A stretch of DNA of 41,903 nucleotides from Balamuthia mandrillaris (Eukaryota): assembly GCA_031835245.2 (NCBI GenBank), contig JAVKOQ020000061.1:186001-227903 (forward strand), read 5' to 3'. The notes beneath the pieces are model-generated. The model saw nothing but the letters and a program-made list of their open reading frames with translations, was not told where the DNA came from and did not search any database. Below are positions 6,651-41,903 of this stretch, in pieces (position 1 is the first letter of the stretch; every line of letters starts with the position of its first letter). The position numbers and the translations under genes are program-made.

Positions 6651-9600
6651 ATGATGGAGCTAAAGGCGGCACGTGCAGCCTACACGCCCTTCTCCGTGGC
6701 AGAGCTGCCGTTTCGCAGCGTCACCCCGTTTCAGCCGTTCGGCCGCCGTCTAGCTGAAGAGGAGGAAGGAGAGGAGGCGCACGGCAGCGAGCTCGAGGCC
6801 TGTCGCAGCTGCTACCTTTTGGCCCCTTCCACCGCCGTTGCAGCAGCGGGGGCACAGCTGCACCAGGAGGGGCTGACTGAAAGCGAGGTCTATGCCTATT
6901 GTAGCGGTGGAGACGCGGCCACCGCCAGTACCAAAATAGTGTGGAGCAGCGGTGGTCGCGTCATAAACACTTGGGAGGTAGGCGGAGCTGCCGCCGCTAT
7001 CTCTTCTTTCTCCTCCCCTTCCTCTGCGCGCCAACATCAACCCTCACGCACCTTGAGCTGGGCTTCCTTTCCTTCTTCGTTGGCCAGCAGCGGCCTCCCT
7101 GATAGCTTCTCTTTTTCTTCTTCTTCGTCGTCGAGCTTCAACAGCATTGGCAGCACTTGGTGGAAGGAAGCAGTGGGTGGTGGGGCGTTGAGACAGCAGC
7201 GGCGACGACGCTACCTGTGCGTGTTGCAGGCGGTAGCTCGTACTTTGACGCTGTGTGAAACGAACGAAGGCATGGAGAGCACCAGCGGAAGCTCCGATAA
7301 AGTGCAACACATCCCTCTTCCTTTCCTTGCGAGCTCCTTGTGGCGGCTTCCGCTCGGGCTTCTCGTGCAGCGCGCCGTTTCTTCTTCGTCTTCTTTTTCC
7401 AATTCTGAATTTCCAACTGCAGAACAAATCACCGCAGAGGCAGTGCCTGGTCTGTTCTCGTTGTTGCATCCGTTGGAAGAATTGCGGCCGGTGCCAACCA
7501 CCACCTCTCCCTCTTCCTCTGATGTGGGCACCATCATCTACAGCAGCGAACGATGGCCGCTCATTGTCAGCCATCATCAGCAGCATCACCAGAACCACCA
7601 ATCGCCTACAGAGTGCGAGATGGAAGGACACAGCCTGTGGATTCTGTTGCCTGCCCAGCAGTCTCATCAGCCTACTTACACAACCGCTATCAACAGCAAA
7701 AAAGCGGAGCGAGATTTCGGCCTTTCCAACAGTAGCGCTGACCCTGTGTTGGAGCCTCAGCTAGCCCTTCATCGCCTCTTTGTGGCAGGGCAAGGAGAAG
7801 GAGGTAAGGAACCAAAAGGAAAAGCCTCCTCTGTATTTATCATGCCCGATGATGGACAAAGCGATGAAAACCACATGAAGGGTCTTCTCTGCCTTCTTAT
7901 CCCAACACTTTCACATCATTTACGAGGTGGCCACCAATCCAACAAAGCAGAGGAAGGGGCAAGCAGCATTTTGGAAGTTTATAGCTTCAGCATTACACTA
8001 AGCCCATCCTCCAGTCTTCCCTCCTCTAAATATTCATCAGTTCCGTCAGCAGTGGCAGTACCTCAGTGCCTCGTCAAGAAAGTCCACAGCCAGGCGGCGC
8101 TTGCGGCTATGCCCATAGAACGAAGAGCCTCCAACAGTTCCAGCGACCTAGTGATACTCCACACCAATGGAAGCATTGGAGTTTATCGTCAGCTTAAGCT
8201 CTTGTTCCACTGCTCTTTCTGCGTGCCATCACCATTGTCGATGCCACCTGCTCCAGTAGTTGGGCTTTGCGACGCAATTGGCTCCCGCCTCAACTTGTTG
8301 CTGGGCGACCGCAACCAGACGCGATTACGCGTGACGGTGCCGGAGGTAGCCTCAAGTCCGCTGGTTCTACGTTGCCTTGCCTTCCTCTGTTCAGCGATGC
8401 ACCAGGAAGATGCTTTCACACTGCTCCGCCTTTATTTGTGCCACAACCAACAACATAACAATGTTGCATCATCCCTTCCTGCAGAGATAACAGACGGAGA
8501 GGAGGAAGTAGAGTGGCGCTCCCTGTGTCACGTCCTTCATTTCATCTTTGAACGACAAGCCACTGAGCCATATCACTCGCCAGCACCACAACAACTATCT
8601 TCTTCTATTGGCTCAGACCATAGTGACGATGATGACGGCGATGACGATTGGCAGTATCTACTTGGTAGCAACGTTCATCAAAGACACTCTACTTCTTTTT
8701 CAGCTCTTGACAAACACTGCACAATACCCAATGTAACTCGCAGTCACTCTTCTTCATCTTCTCCGTCCACGTCAAGTTACTCGCTTCTGGAGGAAGAATG
8801 GAACAGCAAGGTGGTGTTATTCTCCACTAGCTGTTCCACCATTCTGTTTGCCTTACATTCCATCTACGAGGAATCCAAATTGAACATTCTACATTCCTCT
8901 TATGTACAACGGCTCGGTACTTTGCTGATGGAGTTGGCGCAACGTCTTGCATGGCTCAATTATTTGGAGCACTATCGTCGCGACTTGGGGCTCAATGTTG
9001 TGGATGGAGAAGGAGCAGCTTGCACAAGTTGTTCCTTAGCCTCGTGCGAGGAAGAACCCGCTAGCATTTATTCATGGCTCCATCGTCGCTTGCGAGGGGA
9101 GATAGGATTAAAACCATTTACCTTTGCGATTCAGCCCTACGAGCAAGGAGAAGCGACAGCCGTCCCCTTGGTTGATGCTTCGCGGGTTGGTGACACACAA
9201 CTAACTCGCAAAGTCTGTTTGTTCTATGATATCCTCTGTGGTGGAGATGGCCACCACTATGCCAATGCTCACCCTAACAACCGTGGAAAAGGTGAAACGA
9301 AAGAGGAAAAAGAGAAACGGAAAGAAGAAAGCACAGCACCGGCGAGTAAGCCTGTTGTTTCCTACAACAAACCGTCGGAACGGTGGCAGCGAGTAGTGCT
9401 AAGCATGGCCCACGAGGGCTTCACCCTGGAGCAGCTCAACAATCTACCATTTGGCGTGGCGGTTCCCCTGCGGGATGCTATTCAGCAGTGTCGTGCTGGC
9501 AACATACCCACAGGTTGGCCTGTTGCTGCGTATCATCTGTTGGGAAGGAACGATCTGGCACCTGGCTTTAATGCTTCTCTGGTTGAACAACTGCCATCCC

Positions 9601-12600
9601 CGCACGACGCACAAGGGAGCGATGACACAATACTTGAAAACACAGGAATTTCCTTCTCTACAGGAAGAAACAGGCCCGCCACTACCGCTACAGGCAGCGC
9701 TGCTCCAACGACAAGTGGTGAGCAAGACATGATGGGCAAGAGGAATGAGTGGGATGGCCTGGGTGCCATCCTTGATAATGAAGCATGCAGACTGCGATTT
9801 GGACGAGATCAGCGGTTGCGAGACGTACACAAGATGCTGGCTTCGTCATACCCTCGCCGCATCCACCTTCAGGCCAATCAAGCAGCTGGAGCAATGGGTA
9901 TGGCTGAGCATGAGATCGCAGCCGCACAACAAAAGCAATTGCTTCGAATGGCACATCGTACGCTGGCACTGGCAGTGGGGCGAGGCATGTTCACCCTGTC
10001 CAGCACTTCCTCTCACCTGCTGGTGGAGCCCCTTCCCATACCTCTCATCGTGTTGGATGGTAAGGCGGGAGAAAGAGGCAAAACCTTGACTGTCACACTG
10101 GAAGCTGGTTCGGTACCGCCAGAGGTCCTTCGCTGGCCTGAGTTTCACAATGGGGTAGCCACCGCTCTTCGCATTGCTCCCTCTTATCAAGTAGCAGACA
10201 TGGATGACGATGAGTTGGCTAGCAGCGCCGGTGCTGGTTTTTGGGATCAACGCCAAGTGACTAGCACCTGGATAGTCTACAACAAGCAACTGCAGGCAGC
10301 AGCGGGAGGAGGATCGGATAACAACATGAGCAATGGTCATGCGGGACTGCTGATGGGTCTAGGCTTGCAAGGCCACTTATCGTCTTTATCTCAGACCAAG
10401 GTCTTTGACTATCTCAGCAAAGGCCATGAGCTAACCAGTGTGGGTATACTGCTGGGTATGGCTGCCTCCAAAATCGGAACGATGGAGGCCTCGCTGGCAA
10501 AACTCCTCAGTATCCATGTGCCAGCGCTGCATCCGCCCAGTTCCAGTGACCTAGAGGTGCCGCCTAGCGTTCAAACAGCATCATTGCTCGCGCTCGGCCT
10601 CCTCTACCAAGGCACTCTCCACCGCCATATGTGTGAGATTCTTCTGCAAGAAATAGGGCGCAGCCCTTTGGCAAAGCCCCATCCCGATCATGGTGGAAGC
10701 AGCAGTGGTGCTGAGCGAGAAGGTTTGGCCTTGGCTGCGGGATTGGCTTTGGGGCTCGTGGGGCTGGCCCAAGGTGGCAATGGTGCTACTATGAAACCTG
10801 CTGGTCTCAGCGACATGTGCATCGAGGACACTCTGTTCTATTACATGGAAGGAGGGAGACAAGGCGGTAACACCAAGCGGCCTCTTTCTACTGCATCATC
10901 ACTCGATGGAGGAGGTGTCTCCGCTCTGCATGATTGGCTGGCTCCTGATGCGGATGATACAGCAGCGACTGAGGACAGCGTTACGATGATGATAACGGGC
11001 AATGGGGCTTCTGATAGATCTCTTCATGGCAACAGTAATAACAGCAAAAATAGCCTTGTCCTCTTGAGCAGTAGACGTCCTGTAGATGTGGACGCAACTG
11101 CAGCAGGCGCCATTCTGGCCCTAGCCCTCTTGTTCTTGAAAACAGAGCACCGAGTGGTAGCTCAGCGGCTTGCCCCGCCCACCACACCTTACTTGCTAGA
11201 TGGCATTCGACCCGATCTTCTCTTGCTGCGTGTGCTCGCTCGCAACCTTGTTCTGTGGCACTCCATACAACCCAATAAAGGTTGGATGGACTCTCAAATG
11301 CCACAGGTTGTCCTCCGTTTTGCGGCCAAGGAAGATGCAAAGAGGACTCGAGGCCCCATCTTTGTGGAGGAACAGGATGACGATGAAGACGTGACCTCAA
11401 GCAGCAACTATGCGTATGCGGACACGCTGCGTCAGGCGCATATTAACATATTAGCAGGGGCATGCCTATCGTTGGGCCTTCGCTTTGCCGGTTCTTCCGA
11501 TGGAGCAGCCTACGCTCTCTTGCTGGAACAGGTTGAATATATGCAGAAGCGCCTGCGGGTGGCTCCCGAGCAGGACTATCCTATGGTGGAAACCTGCCTC
11601 AACATGGCCACCCTCTCACTGAGTTTGGTAATGGCAGGAACGGGCCATCTGCCCACTCTTCGCCTGTTAAGATCGCAGCACCGCCGTGTACGCCCTCGTC
11701 ATCCTCATAATAGATCTCAACGACAGGAAGAGAACTTGACGGATCTGTTTTCACGCAACGGCAGCAGGGAGGCGGTATCATACGGCACTCATATGGCTAC
11801 AAATATGGCATTGGGTTTGCTATTTCTGGGAGGGGGTAGATACAGCCTTGGCACTCAAAACCATCAGATAGCAGCGCTGGTATGCGCTCTCTACCCTCGC
11901 TTCCCTCTGGATTGCCAAGACAATAGATACCATCTTCAAGCCTTCAGGCACCTCTACGTCCTTGCCTGCGAGGAACGCTGCGTGCAAGCTGTGGATGTAG
12001 AGACAAGGCAGCAATGCTATGTCCCAATCAGAGTGGACCTTATGACCAGTTCTGCTCGCAAAGGAAGCAGCCTAGACCTCACTGCACCTTGCCTCCTTCC
12101 TGAGTTCCGTTTCATTCAGCGCATGTCCATTGCCAGCCCTCGTTATTGGAGCTACAACATCGTTTTGGCCCCCTCACCAGGTGATGACGACACTAGACAT
12201 TCTTCTGCTCAGGCCAAGACGTTGCTTCGCCATCGTATCATCTTTGTCAAGCGCAAAACAGGTTTTCTGTCATACTCTCAAGACCCAGCTGGCCTTCGTA
12301 GCATTCTATGCCGTCCCTTCCCCCAGTATCAGCACCACCTTCAAAATCCTGCCTGCCATTTATTCCAACAAAAACAACGCCCATCTGCGATGAGTGCCGC
12401 GTGGAAGCAACAAAATCGCCTTCTTTTCATCAAGTCGTTCTCACAGGACCCCAACATACTTGCCTTTGCCAACCATTTTGCTCTGCCACAATCATGTGCA
12501 AACCCCACTGGTGCTTCAACCTCTCCATTCACCCAACTGCACAACGAAGAAGCTGCCAACTTCCTCGCCTCCTTCTGTACTGCAGCACTTTATGAATGCC

Positions 12601-13283
12601 TAACCCAAGAAAAACCTGAAGTGCTGCAGACTTATCTTCATCTATATCGTATTATCCAACAGCTTCGTAACTATTCTGCCATCTGTTCAGCTTCCTCTCC
12701 CTCTGGTCACCTTGCAGAAAGGGAAGTGGCAGCACTCACTCAATCGCTTTTGAATGTAAAAATCATATTGGCCTACTATTCTTCTTCTGCATCATCGTCT
12801 TCTTTCGCTTCTGATACCTACAATGATGATTTGCCTGCCACTGCTTCTTCTCCTGCACCCTTGCTACAAGCAATAATGTTGGCAGAGCTACAAGATAGCG
12901 TTAATAGCTTCTTTGATGAACTTCATTTTTGTTTGCCAACTTCACATGCAGCCGCCCTTCATCCATTATCACCATCATCACAGCTTCCACAGGCTCACAA
13001 CCCCACTCCCTTACAACAATACATTCTCTCTTTCCTGATGAAGGACGAAGCCACACCGATATCCTCCTCCACAACCACACAACGTTTGTTTGGATGCTTC
13101 CTACAGTACTATGACATTCCCTATCCTCCCTCTCTTATAAGCAATTTTGCGATACCTTCATCTTCCTCCTCAGCACGGAGAGGAGTCTCAATGTTGCGGT
13201 TAGCTCGTCTTCTTCCCCATAGTCCTCCGCATGTATTGGCCACTATCCTCCTTGCTCTTCGGCCAAAAACACCTTTGCAATAA
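6651..13283 (+). CDS. ANAPC1: Anaphase-promoting complex subunit 1, single 2210-codon ORF
   Basis: LFSLLHPLEELRP, WPEFHNGVATALRI, HAGLLMGLGLQGHL, PC-repeat region, YGTHMATNMALGLLFLGGG, DNRYHLQAFRHLYVLA are characteristic APC1 motifs. Confidence 0.96.
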   Translation: MMELKAARAAYTPFSVAELPFRSVTPFQPFGRRLAEEEEGEEAHGSELEACRSCYLLAPSTAVAAAGAQLHQEGLTESEVYAYCSGGDAATASTKIVWSSGGRVINTWEVGGAAAAISSFSSPSSARQHQPSRTLSWASFPSSLASSGLPDSFSFSSSSSSSFNSIGSTWWKEAVGGGALRQQRRRRYLCVLQAVARTLTLCETNEGMESTSGSSDKVQHIPLPFLASSLWRLPLGLLVQRAVSSSSSFSNSEFPTAEQITAEAVPGLFSLLHPLEELRPVPTTTSPSSSDVGTIIYSSERWPLIVSHHQQHHQNHQSPTECEMEGHSLWILLPAQQSHQPTYTTAINSKKAERDFGLSNSSADPVLEPQLALHRLFVAGQGEGGKEPKGKASSVFIMPDDGQSDENHMKGLLCLLIPTLSHHLRGGHQSNKAEEGASSILEVYSFSITLSPSSSLPSSKYSSVPSAVAVPQCLVKKVHSQAALAAMPIERRASNSSSDLVILHTNGSIGVYRQLKLLFHCSFCVPSPLSMPPAPVVGLCDAIGSRLNLLLGDRNQTRLRVTVPEVASSPLVLRCLAFLCSAMHQEDAFTLLRLYLCHNQQHNNVASSLPAEITDGEEEVEWRSLCHVLHFIFERQATEPYHSPAPQQLSSSIGSDHSDDDDGDDDWQYLLGSNVHQRHSTSFSALDKHCTIPNVTRSHSSSSSPSTSSYSLLEEEWNSKVVLFSTSCSTILFALHSIYEESKLNILHSSYVQRLGTLLMELAQRLAWLNYLEHYRRDLGLNVVDGEGAACTSCSLASCEEEPASIYSWLHRRLRGEIGLKPFTFAIQPYEQGEATAVPLVDASRVGDTQLTRKVCLFYDILCGGDGHHYANAHPNNRGKGETKEEKEKRKEESTAPASKPVVSYNKPSERWQRVVLSMAHEGFTLEQLNNLPFGVAVPLRDAIQQCRAGNIPTGWPVAAYHLLGRNDLAPGFNASLVEQLPSPHDAQGSDDTILENTGISFSTGRNRPATTATGSAAPTTSGEQDMMGKRNEWDGLGAILDNEACRLRFGRDQRLRDVHKMLASSYPRRIHLQANQAAGAMGMAEHEIAAAQQKQLLRMAHRTLALAVGRGMFTLSSTSSHLLVEPLPIPLIVLDGKAGERGKTLTVTLEAGSVPPEVLRWPEFHNGVATALRIAPSYQVADMDDDELASSAGAGFWDQRQVTSTWIVYNKQLQAAAGGGSDNNMSNGHAGLLMGLGLQGHLSSLSQTKVFDYLSKGHELTSVGILLGMAASKIGTMEASLAKLLSIHVPALHPPSSSDLEVPPSVQTASLLALGLLYQGTLHRHMCEILLQEIGRSPLAKPHPDHGGSSSGAEREGLALAAGLALGLVGLAQGGNGATMKPAGLSDMCIEDTLFYYMEGGRQGGNTKRPLSTASSLDGGGVSALHDWLAPDADDTAATEDSVTMMITGNGASDRSLHGNSNNSKNSLVLLSSRRPVDVDATAAGAILALALLFLKTEHRVVAQRLAPPTTPYLLDGIRPDLLLLRVLARNLVLWHSIQPNKGWMDSQMPQVVLRFAAKEDAKRTRGPIFVEEQDDDEDVTSSSNYAYADTLRQAHINILAGACLSLGLRFAGSSDGAAYALLLEQVEYMQKRLRVAPEQDYPMVETCLNMATLSLSLVMAGTGHLPTLRLLRSQHRRVRPRHPHNRSQRQEENLTDLFSRNGSREAVSYGTHMATNMALGLLFLGGGRYSLGTQNHQIAALVCALYPRFPLDCQDNRYHLQAFRHLYVLACEERCVQAVDVETRQQCYVPIRVDLMTSSARKGSSLDLTAPCLLPEFRFIQRMSIASPRYWSYNIVLAPSPGDDDTRHSSAQAKTLLRHRIIFVKRKTGFLSYSQDPAGLRSILCRPFPQYQHHLQNPACHLFQQKQRPSAMSAAWKQQNRLLFIKSFSQDPNILAFANHFALPQSCANPTGASTSPFTQLHNEEAANFLASFCTAALYECLTQEKPEVLQTYLHLYRIIQQLRNYSAICSASSPSGHLAEREVAALTQSLLNVKIILAYYSSSASSSSFASDTYNDDLPATASSPAPLLQAIMLAELQDSVNSFFDELHFCLPTSHAAALHPLSPSSQLPQAHNPTPLQQYILSFLMKDEATPISSSTTTQRLFGCFLQYYDIPYPPSLISNFAIPSSSSSARRGVSMLRLARLLPHSPPHVLATILLALRPKTPLQ

Positions 13284-32019: not shown

Positions 32020-32204
32020 ACTATTTGTTCTAAAATACAGCAACTTATTCATTCTATTAAAGAAAGAATATTGTCTGGCTCAATCAAATTTAACTTTCAT
32101 GGTAACATACCTTGAACTTTCTTCTCTTCATTTTGAATAACTTGAGCTTTGAGTAACTAAGGCGGCACCAAGATCAAGCTGATCAATGAGACACTTGGTT
32201 GCAC

Positions 32205-32820
32205 CGTTGATTCTGCCCAAATTAGAAAAGTACACAGTGAGCCAGTCTTTGGTTTGCACAAAGGTGCCAAACCAGGCCATGATTGTGATGAAGAGGTAAA
32301 GTGGTTCCTGCTTTCCATAAGTTCCATAAAGGCATAAAACTTTTTGTTTGAGGAAATGATATTAAGCTTGAGTCATGATCAAAGCGTCAGTGATGCTTGC
32401 TTTTTGCAAATAATGCATTAAGATTTCTCTCATATGCATTTTTCCAAGGTAAGCTAAGGCCTTGTTCTCTTTAGGAAAAGATTCCTTGGTTTTTGGTTTT
32501 GAATCTTTTTATATATAATTATTATTGCTTTGCTAGCAGCAAACCAGATTAGGCAAATGTAATCAGTGTGCCCAACTTTTTGTTCACTTTAAACAATGCA
32601 ATAGTGTGGAGGAGGCATTGCAAGGTTTATAAAAGGAAAGAAGTGATTATTTGCACCTTGTTTGTTTACATAAAGAAAAGTGATCAAAACGGTAACAAAG
32701 ATATTATGATAATCAATCACCAATAAACTTTTTGATGGTCCAGCACTTTGGAGAAGTGTGGTGATGAGAAAAAGGAATGAAAGCAGAGGCTTTGGCTTTG
32801 GCACAACGCTTGCAATGGCC
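32205..32820. pseudogene. Degenerate, internally rearranged relic of the same transposase family as 34968-37194
   Basis: Nucleotide similarity seen by eye. About 32210-32352 matches 36730-36880 in the same orientation, about 32355-32681 matches 36664-36330 inverted (including the intron), and about 32682-32817 matches 36131-36330 in the same orientation. Stops and indels throughout. Confidence 0.85.
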
Positions 32821-32966
32821 AATGCAAGCAAAGTTGTAAACAAGTCTGGAGATTATGGGCAGCAAGAGCAAGTTGGAAGCATGGAAGTTCTTCTGCATTT
32901 TATCAATCTTTGGAAGTAATGTAAACGTAAGGAAATGATAAGAGAGGAAAAGGAAAGGAAAGGATT

Positions 32967-33108
32967 GCTAGATGATATAAAGTTAGTCTGAAAGCTCATT
33001 CAACACCTTTCACTTGTGAATTAAAAAACAAGTGGATGAGGTGTTGTTATAAAGTTCACAAGTGAAAGGTATTGAATGAGCTTTCAGACTAACTTTGTAT
33101 CATCTAGC
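32967..33108. mobile_element. 142-bp foldback / MITE-like element with 54-bp inverted arms
   Basis: 32967-33020 is the reverse complement of 33055-33108 with 2 mismatches; 34-bp spacer. Confidence 0.75.
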
Positions 33109-33834
33109 TAAGCTCAGTTGTTGTCCAACCAAACATCTTCCATTTGTCAAGAAGCTATGCCAAAACTATTCTCTTGTTCCTCTTTCTCCTTCAACTGCAT
33201 ACCTATCAAGGCCTTGAGCTATGGCTTCCTGCTGCCTATTGATAAAGGAACCTGGAGCAGGACTGCCTTTGGTACTTTTTGCACTTTCTTCTACAATAAG
33301 ATTATTGATCTCCTAGTTGAGAGATTCAATCAGGTCCCTGAATCACTGAGAGTGAGAGTATGCCTACCTCAGAGAGCTTACAACCCTTGTGAGAAACACT
33401 GTAGTTACAATCTAACAGCAGTGCCACTTGACTGTTGGTTTGCTGCTTAATGTCATCTACACTTCCTCCAAAAACTGATTTAGGGTGTCCCCTTTGACAA
33501 AACACTCAGGTTTCAAAGCAGGCTTCCATGGATGATTATAGTTTAGAGTCCCCAGGACAAACAAACCTTTGATATATATGAGCACTATTAATAGCCAATA
33601 CTGTTAACTCGGACCAGTAACACAAGAATGCAAGAAAGTGAACAAGACCAAGGAATAGGCTTTAATGGAAAGAAAGTGTCATGACAGTGTGTGTGTGTGT
33701 ATGTGTGTTTGTTACTTGTTCCTGTTCCAAGAGAAAAAAAAAAGAGAGAAAGAGAAAAGAGTTCTTAATCCACTTCATTATGATCATCAAAGACAGGAGG
33801 AGGCTCAAACGGATGTTCCACATGAGTAGAAGAG

Positions 33835-34260
33835 GGGCTAGCTCTATTGAGAAGAGAAGAAGGCACTCAGTCAGGAATAACAGAACCAGTGACGTCTTGA
33901 AGAACATAAGCACCAGCATGATTCCTTTTCTTGACAACAAAGGAATTGTGATGCATGACCTTGTTGCACCTAACACAAACTCGGCAGAGTGCTGAAGGCA
34001 ATTGTGAAAAGAGGCTATCTTGTTGTTGTAATCACTTGTAGCTTCCTGAATAGCATAGGCCAGACTAGGGAATGGAGCTGGTCATTTTGGGAACAGTGCT
34101 CAGAACAAGAAACAAAAAACTTGTGTTGTTTGGTTGTATGAATGTTGACAACTGTAGGTTGACCAATTGCCAATGCAATGCATACTGTCATGCCTGAAGA
34201 CAAAAAAAACAAAGGTGTGGCCGAGGTGGATGTGAGGAACACAACAAAGTTGTCTATATG
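33835..34260 (-). pseudogene. Probable Ty3/gypsy integrase C-terminal relic
   Basis: Frame-shifted pieces TSATPLFFLSSG, LHSLVWPML and SFVVKKRNHAGAYVLQDVTGSVIPD*VPSSLL resemble the late integrase and GPY/F region of gypsy elements. Catalytic core not seen. Confidence 0.5.
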
Positions 34261-34728
34261 CTGTTGTAGCCCTTTCATGGCATTTCTAGTGTATTCTGTG
34301 GTTTTGTCTAACTTGTGCTGTTCTTCTTCTTTGGCAATGTGTTCAGTCTCAGGAAAGCTGGGGATGTCGAGCTCAAGTTGACAGGATTGTTGGAGCATGC
34401 AAAAGTACTCCTGTTGTGCCTTACAAAGCTGTTCACAGAGGGTATTGAGAGCGGCTGTGGCTTCCATGGTGTGGGTAAAAGAGGATTTAATCACTTATGT
34501 AAGCCAAAAAAAATGTTGGTTGAATCCAACCTCAAGAATAAAAGAGTCAGCAATGAGACAAGAAGTATATTCAAGAGAATAGAGGAAGGACAATGAGAGT
34601 GAATCTCCGATGTTGCTTCAAAGTACACTGAGAGAAAGGGGAAAAGGGAGAAAGGAAGGATGGAGAATATAACACAATACAAACAAAAAGGAGAATCTCC
34701 TTTTGCTATTCACTTGGATTATATGGCA

Positions 34729-34960
34729 AAAAAAAATATTTTTCAGGTCTTAAAAAAAATATTTTTCTTAAAAATTAATTTTCAATCAAAAAAATAATAT
34801 TTTTCCTTTAACAAAAATAATAAAAAAAAATGTTTTTTAATTTCTAAAAATATTTTTTATGGTTTGAGAACATTTTTTAAGTTCTAAAAATTATTTTTTA
34901 TAAAGCATTATTAAAAGACATTTAATATAAAAAATCTACTATTAAACATTAAACAAAATA
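34729..34960. repeat. Extremely AT-rich tract downstream of the transposase with an imperfect ~28-bp direct duplication
   Basis: ttttttaa(t/g)ttctaaaaa...tttttt at about 34833 and 34873, among alternating A and T runs. Confidence 0.7.
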
Positions 34961-34967
34961 CAAAGAT

Positions 34968-37194
34968 TTATGAATGCTGTTTTTCGAATCTATCTAATTC
35001 TGCATAAATTTGAGCTTTGTAAGCAAAAGATAATTTGTGATCTGAAGTTAATGCTAAAGGACCCCAAATAAAAGATGCTTGATGTATGTTTTGTGTTTCC
35101 TTTTGTAAAAAATAACATTGACCTCATTTTGTATACCATAATACAGTAGCTTTACAAGGTGTTGTGGAATGAACAAATGCAAGCCAAAAGTCCTCTGAAG
35201 AACCATCTTTTGGACAAATAGCATAAATGTGATTGGCTAAAATATGGAAAGGTATGCAAGTAGCACAACCAGATGTTGTGACTTGAGATGAAAATTCGAT
35301 TGAAGAGGAGGAAGCAGCTGAAGTCAAAGAAGTGGATGCAGAGAATGAAGGAGTATGTTGTCGATTTAAAGCAGTCATAGGTTGAAACAAAGTAAAAAAA
35401 GGATTATCCAAAGGGGATGAAGGGTGTTGTAAATTATAAATCAATGCTTGTAAGCGAAGTTTGGAAGAAAGCAAAATAGTAGAAAAAGTAGATTGAGTAC
35501 CTCGAATGCATTCTTCTTCTACACAAGATTTGGGTATCAAATGAGGAATATGAGTGGAATATAAAGATAGATTTGGAAATCCTTTTATCAATGAAATGGG
35601 TTTGCTCCAAGGAGCATGAATGTTGGATTTCACTTGTAAAATGGGCCATATTGGAGGGCAGGTCATTGTAGGAGTGGGATAAATAAATTTGAAAAATAGA
35701 GGTTGGGAATGACCTTCAAGATTTACCATGAAAGGATGCAACCAACCTTTGAAATCCCAGACCCATTCCAAAGGATGTAATTCTGGACGAGTTTCATCCG
35801 TTAAATAAGAAGAGTTAATGAATGTAAAGAATTGCTCCAAGCTTTCAATATCAAATTTGAGTAATGCTTTACGAAAGGTAGAAAACATTTGATCCACATC
35901 TTCATGAGTATGTCCAGGTGGCAAAAAGCAAAGTTTGATCTTGGAAAACATCTTGAGATGCACCAACCAACATAAAAAGGCCAATAAATACTTGTTTTTG
36001 TTTTCTTTATAGCAGTTGTCAGCTTGAAGGTAGAGGGTTTGGTTGGGATGGGCTCAAATGGGTTGTTGTAATGTTTGCATGAGAAAGTAAAATAAATGAC
36101 TAATTACTAAATTGGCATCACGTGACCACTGATCAAAATGATAACGCAGATAACAATGATGATGCTCATGATCTATCAGTCCAAAACAAGAGATACCAAT
36201 AAACTTTTTGATGGTCCAGCCTTTTGGGGGAGTATGATGATGGGGAAGAGGAATGGCCTCTGTATAATCCATAATGATGGAATTGTATTTGAAAGGAGAG
36301 GCTTTGGCTTTAGCACGATGCTTGTAATACTTCTCTTTGTGTAAAAAAACAAAGTGCAAATGATCACTTCGTTCCTTTTGTAAGCCTTGCAATGCCTCCA
36401 CACTCTTGCATTGTTTAAAACGAACTAGAAGCTGAGCACATTGATCACATTTTCCTAATCTGGTTTGCTAATACAGAAAGCAATAACAATTATTCATCAA
36501 CAGGTTGTTAGAATAAAAACAATGAATCATTCCTTTCTTTTGACAAACTCTCTCAACAAACAAAGCTTACCTTGGAAAAATGAACATAAGAGAAATCTTC
36601 ATGCAACATTTGCAAAAAGCGTGCATAACTGATGCTTTGATCATGTCCCAGGCTTAATACCATTTCTTGATACAAGGCTTTTCGATTCAATATCATTGGA
36701 ATCTGAATGACTTCAGAGTTTGGCAAGGATTCTCCCATATTGGCAAAGTACACTGTGAGCCAGGCTTTGGTTTGCGAATAGGTGGTGGAGTGCCAAACCA
36801 GGCCACGATTGTGATGAAGAGGTAAAGTGGCTCCCGTTTTCCACAAGTCCATGCAGGCATAAAACTTCTTATTGGAAAGGGCCAGCCATAATTGGATTGC
36901 TTTGTAACAAACCAGATGACCAGCCAAAAGCAATCGTTGCTTGGGGGGCCTGACAGCTCTGGTCTCTTGATAAGGGCCATAAGAAAGAAACAAGCAATCC
37001 ACAAGAAATTTGGTTCTGGCTTGTTCTGAGTCCAGTGTCCAATAATAGGTGCGCATCTCTTGAAAATCCTCTGATGAAATGCTGGAAAGACAGTATTGTT
37101 GACAGCAGTAACTGTGCTTTGAAGTCCGGATATGTTGCTCTGAAAAAAACCGACGTGCAGTGCTTTTCAGTTTGGATGGTGGTTGGAAGGCCAT
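34968..37194 (-). pseudogene. Sola1-like DDD transposase with one intron (36468-36570) and two in-frame TGA codons
   Basis: The ORFs 36553-37194, 36054-36401 and 35124-35984 join into one frame: CCQQYCL...FSK|QTRLGKCDQC...SIIMDYTE...QPI*AHPNQTLYLQADNCYKENKNKY...CFLPPGHTHEDVDQMFS...LWYTK*GQCYF...KQHS-TAA (34970-34968). Putative triad: D(IMD), D(ADN), D(EDVD). The intron position is mirrored in the relic at 32.4-32.5 kb. The Sola1 label is from motif memory. Confidence 0.85.
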
Positions 37195-37487
37195 GGTGCT
37201 CTTTTTCTACTGCAATGATGTCCTATCTAAAGAAACCTCATAAGTCAGCCAGAAGAATCAATAAAAGCTAAACACTTTACAAGAAAAAAAATGGCGGCAG
37301 AATAGATAAATAATCAAAAGGGTATAAGAGGGTATTGGCTGTGCTGTATGACACAAGATCTGCCCTTCACAATGAAGGTTGCTAAATTCTTTGTTGAAAG
37401 GAAAGGGCGCTTTTGCATCATATGACGCACTCAACACTCTTGCTTGCTAGAAAAATTTGAAAAAATTTGCTTTTCATTGGATAGGAA

Positions 37488-38483
37488 GGATAGCCAATGC
37501 CTTTCATACAATAGTAGAGAAAGCCGAAGAGGGCTGATCTGCACTGCATGGCATAGCCAATGCCAGCCATACAAAAGAAAAGAGAGCAGAAAAGGGCTGA
37601 TCTGCACCGTATGGCGCAGCCCATGCCTGCCTATCAAAAGAAAAAATGGCGGAAAAAGGCTGATCTGCGCCATACGGTGCAGCCCATGCCCCTCATACAA
37701 AAGAAAAGAGAGCGGGAAAGGGCTGATCTGCACTATATGGCGCAGCCAATGCCTGCAAAACAAAAGAAAAAATTGAGTAAAAGGGCTAATCTGCACCGTA
37801 TAGTGCAGCCCATGCCTGCCATACAAAAGAAAAAATTGTGAAAAAAGGCTGATCTGCGCCATATGGCGCAGCCCATTCCTGCCATACAAAAGAAAAGAGA
37901 GCGGAAAAGGGCTGATCTGCGCCATACGGCGCAGCCCATGCCTGTCATACAAAAGAAAAGAGAGCAGAAAAGGGCTGATTTGCACTGTACGGTGCAGCCC
38001 ATGCCAGCCATACAAAAGAAAAGAGAGCAGAAAAGGGCTGATCTGCGCTGTACGGTGCAGCCCATGCCAGCCATACAAAAGAAAAGAGAGCAGAAAAGGG
38101 CTGATCTGCGCTGTATGGCGCAGCCCATTCCTGCCATACAAAAGAAAAGAGAGCAGAAAAAGGCTGATCTGCGCCATACGGCGCAGCCCATTCCTGCCAT
38201 ACAAAAGAAAAGAGAGCAGAAAAGGGCTGATCTGTGCTGTACAGCGCAGTCCATGCCAGCCATACAAAAGAAAAGAGAGCAGAAGAGGGCTGATCTGCGC
38301 TGCACGGCGTAGCCAATGCCAGCCATACAAAAGAAAAGAGAGCAGGAAAGGGCTGATCTGCGCCGTACAGCGCAGCCCATGCCTGTCATACAAAAGGGCA
38401 GATCTGCACCATACAGCCGATGCCAGCCATACAAAAGAAAAGAGAGTGGGAAAGGGCTGATCTGCGCTGTACAGTGCAGCCAA
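37488..38483. repeat. Tandem array of a 63-bp unit (16 cores), each with an 18-bp palindromic core and an A-rich spacer
   Basis: Cores start at 37539, 37602, 37665, 37728, 37791, 37854, 37917, 37980, 38043, 38106, 38169, 38232, 38295 and 38358 (exact 63-bp period), then 38404 and 38462. Unit approx. GGGCTGAT-CTGCGCCGTACGGCGCAG-CCCATGCCAGCCATACAAAAGAAAAGAGAGCAGAAAA. Confidence 0.97.
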
Positions 38484-38965
38484 CGCGCTAGTCTCGAAAA
38501 TTGAATGCAAGCAAAAAAACAAAAGAAAAAGGGATAATGGCATAGCAATGCTGGTCTCTCTTTCAAACAAAATGCAGGCTGAACAGATTTGACAACTGAG
38601 AACAATACAAACCGTTATGCCTCACAGTCCTTTCACAAGTTGAACTCAAAAGAAAGAATCATGAGGTTGGATGTAAGAAAGCACATTCAAGCCCCTTTAT
38701 TATGAGAACAAAACGCTTTTGAATTTCCTTCAACTTGCTGTCACTTCTTCCAGCACCATATCAGCGATGCTCTCTGTCATTGGTTGCCCTCCACAAAGTC
38801 TGCAGCAAACCACAACGATTTGACTACCAATTAAATGAAATTTGAAAGAAAAAAAAGAGGGCCAAAAGCAAAACAAACTCCCAAAATTTTAGTTTGTCAC
38901 AAAAGTGCACAACCATTCACACCGTTCACACATATTCCTTGCTTTTTATTTTTGCTGTTGTGGTT

Positions 38966-41903
38966 ATGTCGGACAACAAGAGATTGACAGTGAAAGAACT
39001 GCGGCAAAGGATCGACGACCTCAGTGGACAATGGACCACCAAGGACTCCAAATCTGTCTTATCACACAAATTGCAAATGCTACAAACTCCTACGTCGAAT
39101 CCTTCTTCCAACCAACCTTCGGACCTCTCGGAAACAGATGAAGGCTCATCTTCCTCCCCATCCAACAGGTAAAACAACTTGCTCTCCATTTTGGTTTTTC
39201 TGGTGAGTGATTGAGGTTTTTTATGATAGCACTCCAACAAGAAATGATTGGATTTTGCGCGAGAGCGACTTGGAAGCTGTGCATCTATTTTGTGCACCGG
39301 ATGGCGCAGACGAGGAAACCAAAGAGGTGGCAGAACTTTGTAAAACTCGGCTTCAGGAGGGGACTCGTTTGGTTCCGTTGAAAGCTATCACTATGAAAGG
39401 TTTGTGCTTTTATTTTTGTGTTATAGTCAACAGCTGAACGGCCACTATTCGCCTTGCTTCTTTCTTCCTCAAGGGAGAAGGGCCAGTCCAGCTCCATCCT
39501 ACTTTTGCCCTTTCTCTTCTCTCATCCAAATTATTATTTGAAGGGATGGTGTTGACTGCGCCGTACAGCGCAGATCAGCCCTTCAGCTCATTTGCTGCGC
39601 CGGATGGCACAGTTCAGCCCTTCAAACCTCCAGTACTTTAGAAGGGAAATCATTGGCTGCACCATATGATGCAGCTCAGCTCTTCAAATCCTCTGGTATT
39701 TTTGAAGGAAGGGTGTTGGCTGCACCATATGGCGCAGATCTGCCCTTCAGATCAACACTTTCCTTTTATAGTTCGGGTGATGATTGCGCCGTATGGCGCA
39801 GATCACAACTGCTGCCTTAATTTCTTGTTTGGCTGGCAAGAAAAGGTTATAGGCTGCGCCGTACGGCACAGCTCATGCCTTTGGCCTTTTTCTCTCTTGT
39901 TGACTAGTTGAAGGGCATTGGCTGCGCCATACGGTGCAGCGAATACCCTCCACAGTTTTTCATGCCTTCTTTTAACTTTGTACTGTCATTAACTTCGTTT
40001 GTTTTATCAGGTTGGCATCGACCTCTAAAACCAGAGGGGTTGAACAAGCTGCTGGCCACATTCAACTCAGGCGGCATTTTGTCTTTTGATGAACGCTCTT
40101 CTTTATTATTGATGGAACTGCCTTCAGCTCTGTGGGTGCATCCAGAAAGCAATCAACAAGAATATGTATGTCTTGGAGGTAACCATCGATGTGCAGCAGC
40201 CCACGTATTGTACTGTGAAAACTCCCCAAAGCTGAAGGAGTTAACTTGGAGGGCCAAAGTGCTGCCATTTGATGGCAAACAACTTCCAAGTGTGGCTGTC
40301 TTGGACAAGGTACAATTCCTTGGAGTTTTCTGTTGCTTTTTCTGTTTTTTAACAAGGTGACTTACTCATATTTCTTGGAAGTTGTCTGCCTGGGACAACC
40401 TGGTGTTGTCCGAAGGAGTCAATCAAGAGACAGAATGGGATATGGTCCGTTTTGTGTACAATCATCTCACGAAAACACCAGAGGAGCTGTTCCATTATCT
40501 GGTAGGCCTTCTTTGGTTGCAGGCAAGCTTTCTAAAATGATTGCTCATTTTTTCTCTTTTGTGTTGGGTGGGTTTTGTATTTTAGAATTCACAAACTGCC
40601 TCCCAAGATGCCCATAATGCTCTCACCTTTGATCGTGTTTGACGTTTGAAAACAGTGGCAAACAAAATGCAGAAATTCCCAGAGTCTTGGAGTTATATTC
40701 AGGAGAAGGACAAAGAGAAGGGGGGCTGGGTGTTTACTCCTTACCACTTCAGAGAGAAAATGCCAAGCTCCTTATCAGATGAAACCTTGTTGGCAGCCTT
40801 GAAAGAGATATGGGCAAGGCACCTCGAGGATCCCAAGGAAGAATGTTCTGTAACCAACTTCAAAAGATTGGTAAGCTGCATTGCAATCTTTTCTTTCTCT
40901 ATCTTGTCACTACTACTTTTCCTCATGAAACGTGCATACATGCAGATGTGGAAACACATTGGTCGAAAAGCTATGCATGAAGAACTGGAATTGTATCATA
41001 CTGAAAAAGAGATTCCTTTAGCCCACTTGGTATTGATTTCTATAGCATTGAAGTTTAGTTAACATTTCCTTTTGCTATCTTTCATTCATTTATTCATTCC
41101 TTGCTGCTAGCAACACATACCCTCCGATGAACCAGCTTCTCCTCCATTCCACTCAAACACCACTACACCTCAACCCTCTCCACCTCCTTCACCAAAACCA
41201 TCTCATGATATTGAAAGGAAAAAAAAAAGAAAAAGCAAAAAACAACAACCAAAGACCTCTTCCAAACACCAGGCCAAAAAAGCAAAAAACCATCATCGTG
41301 GCAGACCCAAACTCAACACTCCTCCTCAACCCTCCAAACAATTGGCCCACCAACTCAACAAATGGGGAAAGGACGTGCTTGCTTCTCATTCCCCTCCTAC
41401 CAAGTTCAAAGTGATCATTTATGATAATTTACCAACACATGCTCCCTTGATGCTTGATTCCTTGGGAGTACACTGCCAAAGTAAGTCTTTTTTGGGTTAT
41501 TTTTTCCAAAGAACTCAGATTGCTGTCTGTCTAATTTTCTCTCATTCTTCCCAGATCATCATGTGGAAAGGGTTTTGTTGATAACTACCCGTTATAATCA
41601 CTTGCACTTGGCCATGAATCAAATCAATGCCTATAAACAAAAGCAACGTCAGCTTTTGATTAACTTGAAGCTAGAAACAGTTCTTGTTTTTGGGTACAAA
41701 CCTCACCATTCCAACCATAACAACAAACCACAATGGTGTGAGAATGGCATCTTTGTGGCAGTGTGGAACAAAGGCCAAACACAGTTGCAGGATGATTCTA
41801 GTTCGATTACTTCTTCTCTGTTGGCCTTGGAGACATGGCAACCAACTTCAGTGGTGATTCCAATCAAGGGACCTCAAGCTCAGGAAGGACAAGTGGCTGA
41901 TCA
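38966..41903 (+). pseudogene. Spliced gene for a SAP/HeH-like + ParB/Srx-like + AT-hook protein; one in-frame TGA; 3' end beyond the window
   Basis: Phase-consistent GT-AG model: 38966-39168, 39230-39399, 40011-40309, 40382-40501, 40586-40870, 40946-41029, 41111-41480, 41555->41903. Motifs: LTVKELRQRIDDLSGQWTTKDSKSVLSHKL; RLVPLKAITMKGWHRPLKPEGLNKLLATFNSGGIL; YVCLGGNHRCAAA; LSAWDNLVLSEGVNQETEWDMVRFV; HRGRPK. TGA at 40640-40642. Confidence 0.75.
39540..39945. repeat. Cluster of seven copies of the same 18-bp palindrome with diverged spacers, inside intron 2 (39400-40010) of the ParB-like gene
   Basis: Cores start at 39556, 39595, 39657, 39720, 39784, 39854 and 39922. The ATCAGCCC-type flank lies 3' of the core, so these are inverted relative to the main array. 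Confidence 0.9.

Follow-up and report, generated by a model that had tools for sequence, protein, structure and literature searches.

A putative ParB-like gene with inverted clusters of a palindrome in a DUF7869 transposon of Balamuthia mandrillaris: candidate element-specific recognition sites

The window, meaning the whole 41,903-nucleotide stretch of Balamuthia mandrillaris DNA analyzed here, is gene-dense and eukaryotic, with APC1, importin, RasGEF and NMD3 among its encoded proteins. APC1 is a single uninterrupted 2210-amino acid ORF (window positions 6651-13283), and the rest of the region is intron-rich. The right-hand part of the window holds a transposable element whose products are 99-100% identical to NCBI Balamuthia mandrillaris proteins. 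Its likely left end, with AT-rich repeats of about 20 bp at 34710-34900, was placed from the start of a contig common to copies (34710, run X1) and from deletion joints, and the element extends past the right edge of the window, beyond 41903. Other repeats flank it at 32450-33740 and 34170-34700, with a much higher copy number and a far deeper contig depth than the element, and RNA reads originating from copies elsewhere map to some of them. Near the left side of the element there is also a hairpin with 65-bp arms (32967-33108), and a scrambled relic at 32200-32820 derives from a second copy of the same DUF7869 transposase, with pieces in both orientations and 53-79% protein identity.

The transposase gene is on the minus strand (35127-37194), with one predicted intron near 36460-36570. 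It was assigned to the DUF7869 DDD transposases by a Pfam match (PF25273, E=8e-43) together with an aligned triad and motifs, the three aspartates aligning among the DUF7869 homologs compared. The Sola1 superfamily is marked by terminal inverted repeats (TIRs) and a 4-bp target duplication. With Sola features drawn from such background or from a table for an Ectocarpus element, the sequence looks Sola-like. An in-frame TGA at 36054-36056 interrupts the catalytic domain; the NCBI model P0009 (a cluster of five) lacks the stretch that would hold this codon, and annotated 'intact' transposase copies may share it.

The element exists in multiple copies: contigs of three DNA runs from two samples (X1-X3) showed, over 34710-41903, a depth roughly tenfold that of host genes, as a measure of depth and not of copy number, and long contig pieces were 99% identical to the element. 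In run X1 the intergenic palindrome array described below reached a depth of 42-46, the rest of the element 25-76 and host DNA 2-5 in most bins. Summed contig depth was equal for the array and the rest of the element in all three runs. A satellite unlinked to the element would have undone the original prediction; the matching depths instead tie the array to the element, and on this ground we rejected a free high-copy satellite. In run X6 depth over the element was close to that of the host, with the array barely covered (1-3, against 12 for the host). Run X3 contained two deletion joints (34725→37479 and 34882→37726), which are derivatives without the transposase that retain the left end and the palindrome array. 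In three raw RNA runs from a different strain, sampled at 3-5% each, the array received no reads and the two element genes next to none; host-gene depth was itself 0-2.6, and the result says little about silence of the element.

Divergent from the transposase is a multi-exon accessory gene on the plus strand (38966-41903, from predicted exons and NCBI models) that runs off the window. Its product is predicted to comprise a short helical N-terminus, a ParB-like domain, a helical region, a charged linker and a C-terminus with an N4/N6-methyltransferase fold. The N-terminus (38966-39085) is a short two-helix motif, LTVKELRQ..., reminiscent of SAP domains, with no match to SAP in Pfam. The ParB-like exon (40011-40309) encodes WHRPL...GGNHR, which includes a GxHR motif. 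On its own, the ParB-like protein of the window had no match in Pfam, PHROG or the PDB, and HHalign gave it a probability of 1%. A phmmer search with the NCBI model P0005 against 1.84 billion representatives returned four matches, namely the query, two fragments of 87-94% identity and a weak match to an unrelated protein, with no distant relative among them, and neither the transposase profile nor the ParB-like protein matched viral loci. AlphaFold2 models were poor both for the protein alone (pLDDT 33.5) and with a ten-row alignment (47.7), and Foldseek and VIA-align found nothing usable with them.

Evidence for the ParB assignment came from profiles and from related DUF7869 loci in metagenomes. 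A ten-row ParB-like profile matched only P0006, an NCBI model from another copy of the element; compared with four phage ParB proteins it reached an HHalign probability of 93%, a partly circular figure because the phage set was chosen by likeness to one of the relatives, L021. When the profile was built without the window protein, the window exon ranked first among 1032 window segments (E=0.04). In the relatives, four of six ParB-region segments matched PHROG ParB-like families weakly (E 0.04-0.5), and 11 of the 23 phage tblastn matches of L021 were annotated as ParB. Language-model Atlas features, taken as a lead only, gave DUF3723 at 0.93 and ParB_N at 0.92. Together these weak but convergent signals suggest that the divergent passenger gene encodes a ParB-like domain. 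The helical region that follows had no family match, with no helix-turn-helix (HTH), ribbon-helix-helix or other site-reading domain identified, and there was no ParA ATPase by Pfam among the 24 + 11 window segments scanned, in an element cut at the right edge.

Residues 425-630 of P0006, which is 96-97% identical to the window protein over their overlap, matched the PF01555 (N6_N4_Mtase) fold with TM-scores of 0.56-0.60, and the matches included clusters combining ParB_N with a methyltransferase; hmmscan gave no PF01555 match for the passenger protein. The canonical methyltransferase motifs are DPPY and DPFxGSG. At these places we found DNLP in both the window protein and P0006 and AFNPTSG in P0006, not the intact DPPY-type and SAM-binding motifs of an active beta-class N4/N6 DNA methyltransferase. 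The motifs look degenerate, and activity is doubtful. Compared with other copies, the window gene is also missing 118 bp near 41030. Given this deletion, the transposase stop and the decayed state of the palindromic sites, this copy of the element is probably no longer autonomous.

Between the two genes is array A (37492-38483), an intergenic 63-bp tandem repeat with 14 regularly spaced cores and the largest array of the element. As the original prediction had proposed, the variant copies rebuild an 18-bp core, CTGCGCCGTACGGCGCAG, that is its own reverse complement. A core scan and Tandem Repeats Finder (37492-38396: period 63, 14.4 copies, 85% matches, 0% indels) bear out the claimed run of 14 cores exactly 63 bp apart, which start at 37539+63n and continue through 38358. 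Each unit consists of AAGGGCTGAT, the core, CC(C/A)AT and an A-rich spacer. A fifteenth core at 38462 begins 104 bp after the fourteenth, with a truncated unit near 38394-38420 between them. Toward the transposase start, the two degenerate copies that had been predicted are present (37339-37430): one at 37339 with inverted flanks, and a more degenerate one at 37413 that fell below the threshold of the palindrome scan and was aligned through repeat family D2. Long stop-free frames over the array were considered as coding sequence and rejected, as we infer that they follow from the 63-bp period.

The palindrome also occurs inside the passenger gene, in copies that the first list had missed. Array B (39556-39939) has seven cores within predicted intron 2, their flanks in the opposite orientation to those of array A, at irregular core spacings of 39, 62, 63, 64, 70 and 68 bp, and a further core-like copy in coding exon 2 (39292-39309) has two non-CpG mismatches and no flank motif. 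Intron 2 (39400-40010) is a prediction based on its GT/AG ends and on the model P0005 rather than on RNA; the models P0006 and P0007, from two other copies, translate part of the intronic array. Copies of the palindrome therefore form two clusters, in opposite orientation, on either side of the passenger gene's start, 2.6-5 kb from the element end and bracketing the first exons of that gene. The palindrome scan found no match in host DNA (1-32000) and eight in 38501-41903, compared with a mean of 0.01 in 100 Markov shuffles, and a paired-core pattern had no match among viral contigs. All 21 matches to the flank motif AAGGGCTGA (at most one mismatch, 34700-41903) were followed by a core, so that flank and core form one conserved unit.

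Related elements came from one metagenome scan with the transposase profile, in which 144 stretches were confirmed and the best 79 loci taken. Among these best 79 of 144, palindrome arrays (at least 4 copies of 15-24 bp) were present in 13 of the 55 loci of at least 2 kb. By region, again among the best 79 of 144, they were found in 7 of 17 loci with at least 2.5 kb upstream of the transposase (four families) and in 3 of 8 with at least 2.5 kb downstream; the same criterion picked out none of 5 host chunks and none of 51 shuffles. About 10 different motifs are represented, each occurring almost exclusively in one family. Five loci (L019, L021, L029, L031 and L070) have ParB-like exons upstream of the transposase and on the other strand, with a weaker case in L002. 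Of these five, in which the ParB-like gene is clear, four carry an array, and L021 has singleton palindromes only. In nine of the 13 array loci, many of them on short contigs, no ParB gene was seen, and in the array-bearing loci L041-L043 about 10 kb of upstream sequence yielded no ParB-like exon.

The best evidence that a motif has been kept for its own sake comes from L031, where nine isolated copies of a 20-22-bp palindrome are spread over both genes, mostly with a short intron to each copy, with an identity of 0.84 in the core versus 0.45 in the flanks. In L029 and L031 most palindrome copies are in introns of the ParB-like gene, and copies also occur inside transposase introns in L017, L019 and L031. 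Three loci have further peculiarities. In L029 (1522-5005) a single transposase has two distinct ParB-like genes upstream, which come from adjacent or nested elements of two families. L070 has, in addition to its upstream array, a second array of a different palindrome downstream of the transposase, about 1.5-2.2 kb into the scanned segment. L017 (83-1493) carries an odd-length palindrome of 17 bp in seven near-perfect copies, set among T-tracts both upstream of the transposase gene and within it.

Differences among the window cores are nearly all CpG→TpG or CpG→CpA changes. CG is retained at 41 of the 88 CpG sites in 22 cores, and none of the 22 is intact, as had been foreseen; at this survival about one intact copy would be expected, so the absence of any is unremarkable. 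The CpG observed/expected ratio is 0.23-0.30 in the genes of the element and 0.66 in host DNA, which fits methylation-driven decay, and in the amoebozoan Acanthamoeba repeats are reported to carry CG methylation (PMC12344493). The cores were thus likely eroded by host CpG methylation. At the outer CpG pair, changes that spare the CTGC...GCAG ends outnumber others by 14 to 4 (p about 0.03, with non-independent copies), a weak hint of symmetric constraint.

One reading of this pattern is a neutral minisatellite, a unit amplified by slippage and partly copied in inverted orientation into the intron, with no protein that reads it. Array A by itself fits such a repeat. Its spacer is as conserved as its core (pairwise 0.84 versus 0.79), and non-CpG changes affect 5 of 140 core and 45 of 602 spacer positions (p=0.13), as expected for a young tandem repeat; no intact copy remains. 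Between arrays, however, the core persists where the spacers have diverged: comparing A with B, 67 of 70 non-CpG core positions are kept and 151 of 301 in the flanks (Fisher p=2e-14), a contrast inflated by the selection of array B copies on core match and by ungapped alignment of the flanks. The single intronic copies of L031 and the roughly ten family-specific palindromes are also hard to obtain by drift, and we consider a minisatellite quite improbable.

The original prediction placed the cores on one face of the helix, six turns apart at 10.5 bp, on DNA possibly bent by A-tracts. Bound dimers could then line up along a phased, bent platform; 63 bp does correspond to 6.0 turns, and two copies in L019 are also 63 bp apart. 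Equal spacing is nevertheless automatic in array A because it is a tandem repeat, and the best reading of the 63-bp period is the length of the duplicated unit. Intron spacings range over 39-70 bp, and the relatives have periods of 28, 35, 39, 43, 45, 46, 48 and 63 bp (n=8), only two of which are near a multiple of about 10.5 bp and six of which are 0.29-0.43 turn out of phase. The A-tracts of the unit, 5, 12 and 46 bp apart, are unphased, and bending is likewise not supported. We rejected helical phasing as a requirement, given relatives' periods of 28-63 bp that are mostly off-turn, and regard the platform as the least probable of the readings discussed here.

The motif might act as an RNA or single-stranded DNA hairpin, or as a cruciform, in intron folding, splicing or recombination, and not as a duplex site for protein. 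Many copies are intronic (array B, and L031 among the relatives), and the four single copies we folded had energies of -6.5 to -11.1 kcal/mol. An extended hairpin from the GGGCTG...CAGCCC flanks had been predicted; an alternative or bulged hairpin stands, but a clean extension does not, with the flank competing for the CAG of the core. Decay in array B has nonetheless gone to CA, which breaks an RNA pair, 8 times and to TG, which leaves G-U, 6 times. No compensatory changes were seen, and the largest array is intergenic. A nucleic acid structure is very unlikely to be what the motif is kept for.

A protein reader could instead be the transposase itself, with the palindromes serving as sites for autoregulation or as an internal enhancer and the ParB-like gene a bystander. 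Copies near the transposase start, those inside transposase introns of L017, L019 and L031, the nine array loci in which no ParB gene was seen and the deletion derivatives that keep both left end and array all agree with this. The window sites, on the other hand, lie kilobases inside the element and around the first exons of the ParB-like gene, and in L029 and L031 the copies are mostly in introns of that gene. On balance we think the transposase an unlikely reader.

We favor, with somewhat better than even confidence, a reading in which the palindromes are element-specific recognition sites for the ParB-like protein and serve to mark or shield its own element. The parS- or operator-like site in a divergent region that was first proposed has gained from the follow-up, with the motif linked to the element, the core outlasting its flanks between arrays and the divergent gene appearing ParB-like. 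In the mechanism we envisage, a dimer of the predicted ParB-like protein would bind the palindrome, each half-site being read as ParB reads parS, and would thereby recognize its own element family. The bound protein might then spread or recruit its own methyltransferase-fold domain, so that the element is marked or shielded, and such marking could protect the divergent promoter from silencing by the host, in the manner of VANC. Tandem duplication would have multiplied the sites and set the 63-bp period, and host CpG methylation probably then eroded them, leaving the decayed copy in the window. CTP clamping cannot be assumed because phage ParB activators worked without their NTP residues. A bolder version, which we hold to be doubtful, is that a genuine ParB-parS switch operates in Sola-like transposons of eukaryotes at large. 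A CTP-gated clamp would load at the palindrome of its family and slide along the element in chromatin, so as to shield or re-mark it against 5mC silencing by the host, and protein and palindrome would co-diversify from family to family. If true, a ParB sliding clamp would be at work in the nucleus of a eukaryote, with natural orthogonal pairs of site and protein.

Several known systems resemble parts of this arrangement. Bacterial ParB/parS and Noc/NBS pair a GxHR N-terminal domain with 16-22-bp palindromic sites in several copies, whereas the window gene is eukaryotic and intron-containing, with no ParA or HTH identified. VANDAL elements are Mutator-like elements. In Arabidopsis, VANC proteins of VANDAL elements read family-specific motifs that lie in introns and upstream and have been amplified in tandem (PMC5735166); these element-encoded readers are DUF1985/DUF287 proteins with 9-bp non-palindromic motifs and a proven anti-silencing function. 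The likeness lies in intronic and upstream motifs grown as tandem repeats, and our working model is built by analogy with it, the window motif differing as an 18-bp palindrome. Phage ParB activators of 5mYOX enzymes have no obvious DNA-binding domain and dispensable NTP residues (PMC13229309); they too pair ParB with a DNA-modifying enzyme.

Closest are two algal transposons. PAG3 of red-algal Plavaka elements (EnSpm/CACTA) has a ParB-like N-terminus and adjacent tandem inverted-repeat arrays, and it has been suggested to bind the element that encodes it and to modify it (Petroll et al., 10.1101/2025.02.11.637652). It shares with the window gene a ParB-like accessory gene beside tandem inverted-repeat arrays. 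PAG3, however, includes a putative 2OG oxygenase, its element encodes the methyltransferase in another gene (PAG2), and the transposase it accompanies, in red algae, is of the Plavaka type. In the amoeba element of the window, a single gene next to a DUF7869 transposase combines the predicted ParB-like domain with the N4/N6-methyltransferase fold. Sola1-1_Ec32 of the brown alga Ectocarpus encodes, opposite its transposase as in the window, a protein with ParB-like and N4/N6 methyltransferase parts, for which binding and modification of its own element were proposed (PMC12477816). This likeness is one of description; Sola1-1_Ec32 is 21.5 kb long with a 282-bp TIR, and the available part of the account does not mention a palindrome array.

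Both a ParB gene with inverted-repeat arrays and a ParB-methyltransferase gene are thus already described in algal transposons, and the concept has been proposed. The window element shows the features of such ParB-accessory transposons, namely a transposase, a ParB-like gene (weakly), a methyltransferase fold and adjacent inverted-repeat arrays. Our literature search, covering the available portions of its sources, returned no amoebozoan case and no experimental test. The element described here extends the module of a ParB-like gene and palindromes, so far reported in those sources from algal transposons, to an amoeba, and related DUF7869 elements add comparative evidence beyond those sources in that each has its own palindrome, sometimes one per intron. 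What is gained is breadth and testability and not a new kind of system, with defined sites and cognate proteins for asking whether transposons use a ParB-type reader for self-recognition or protection.
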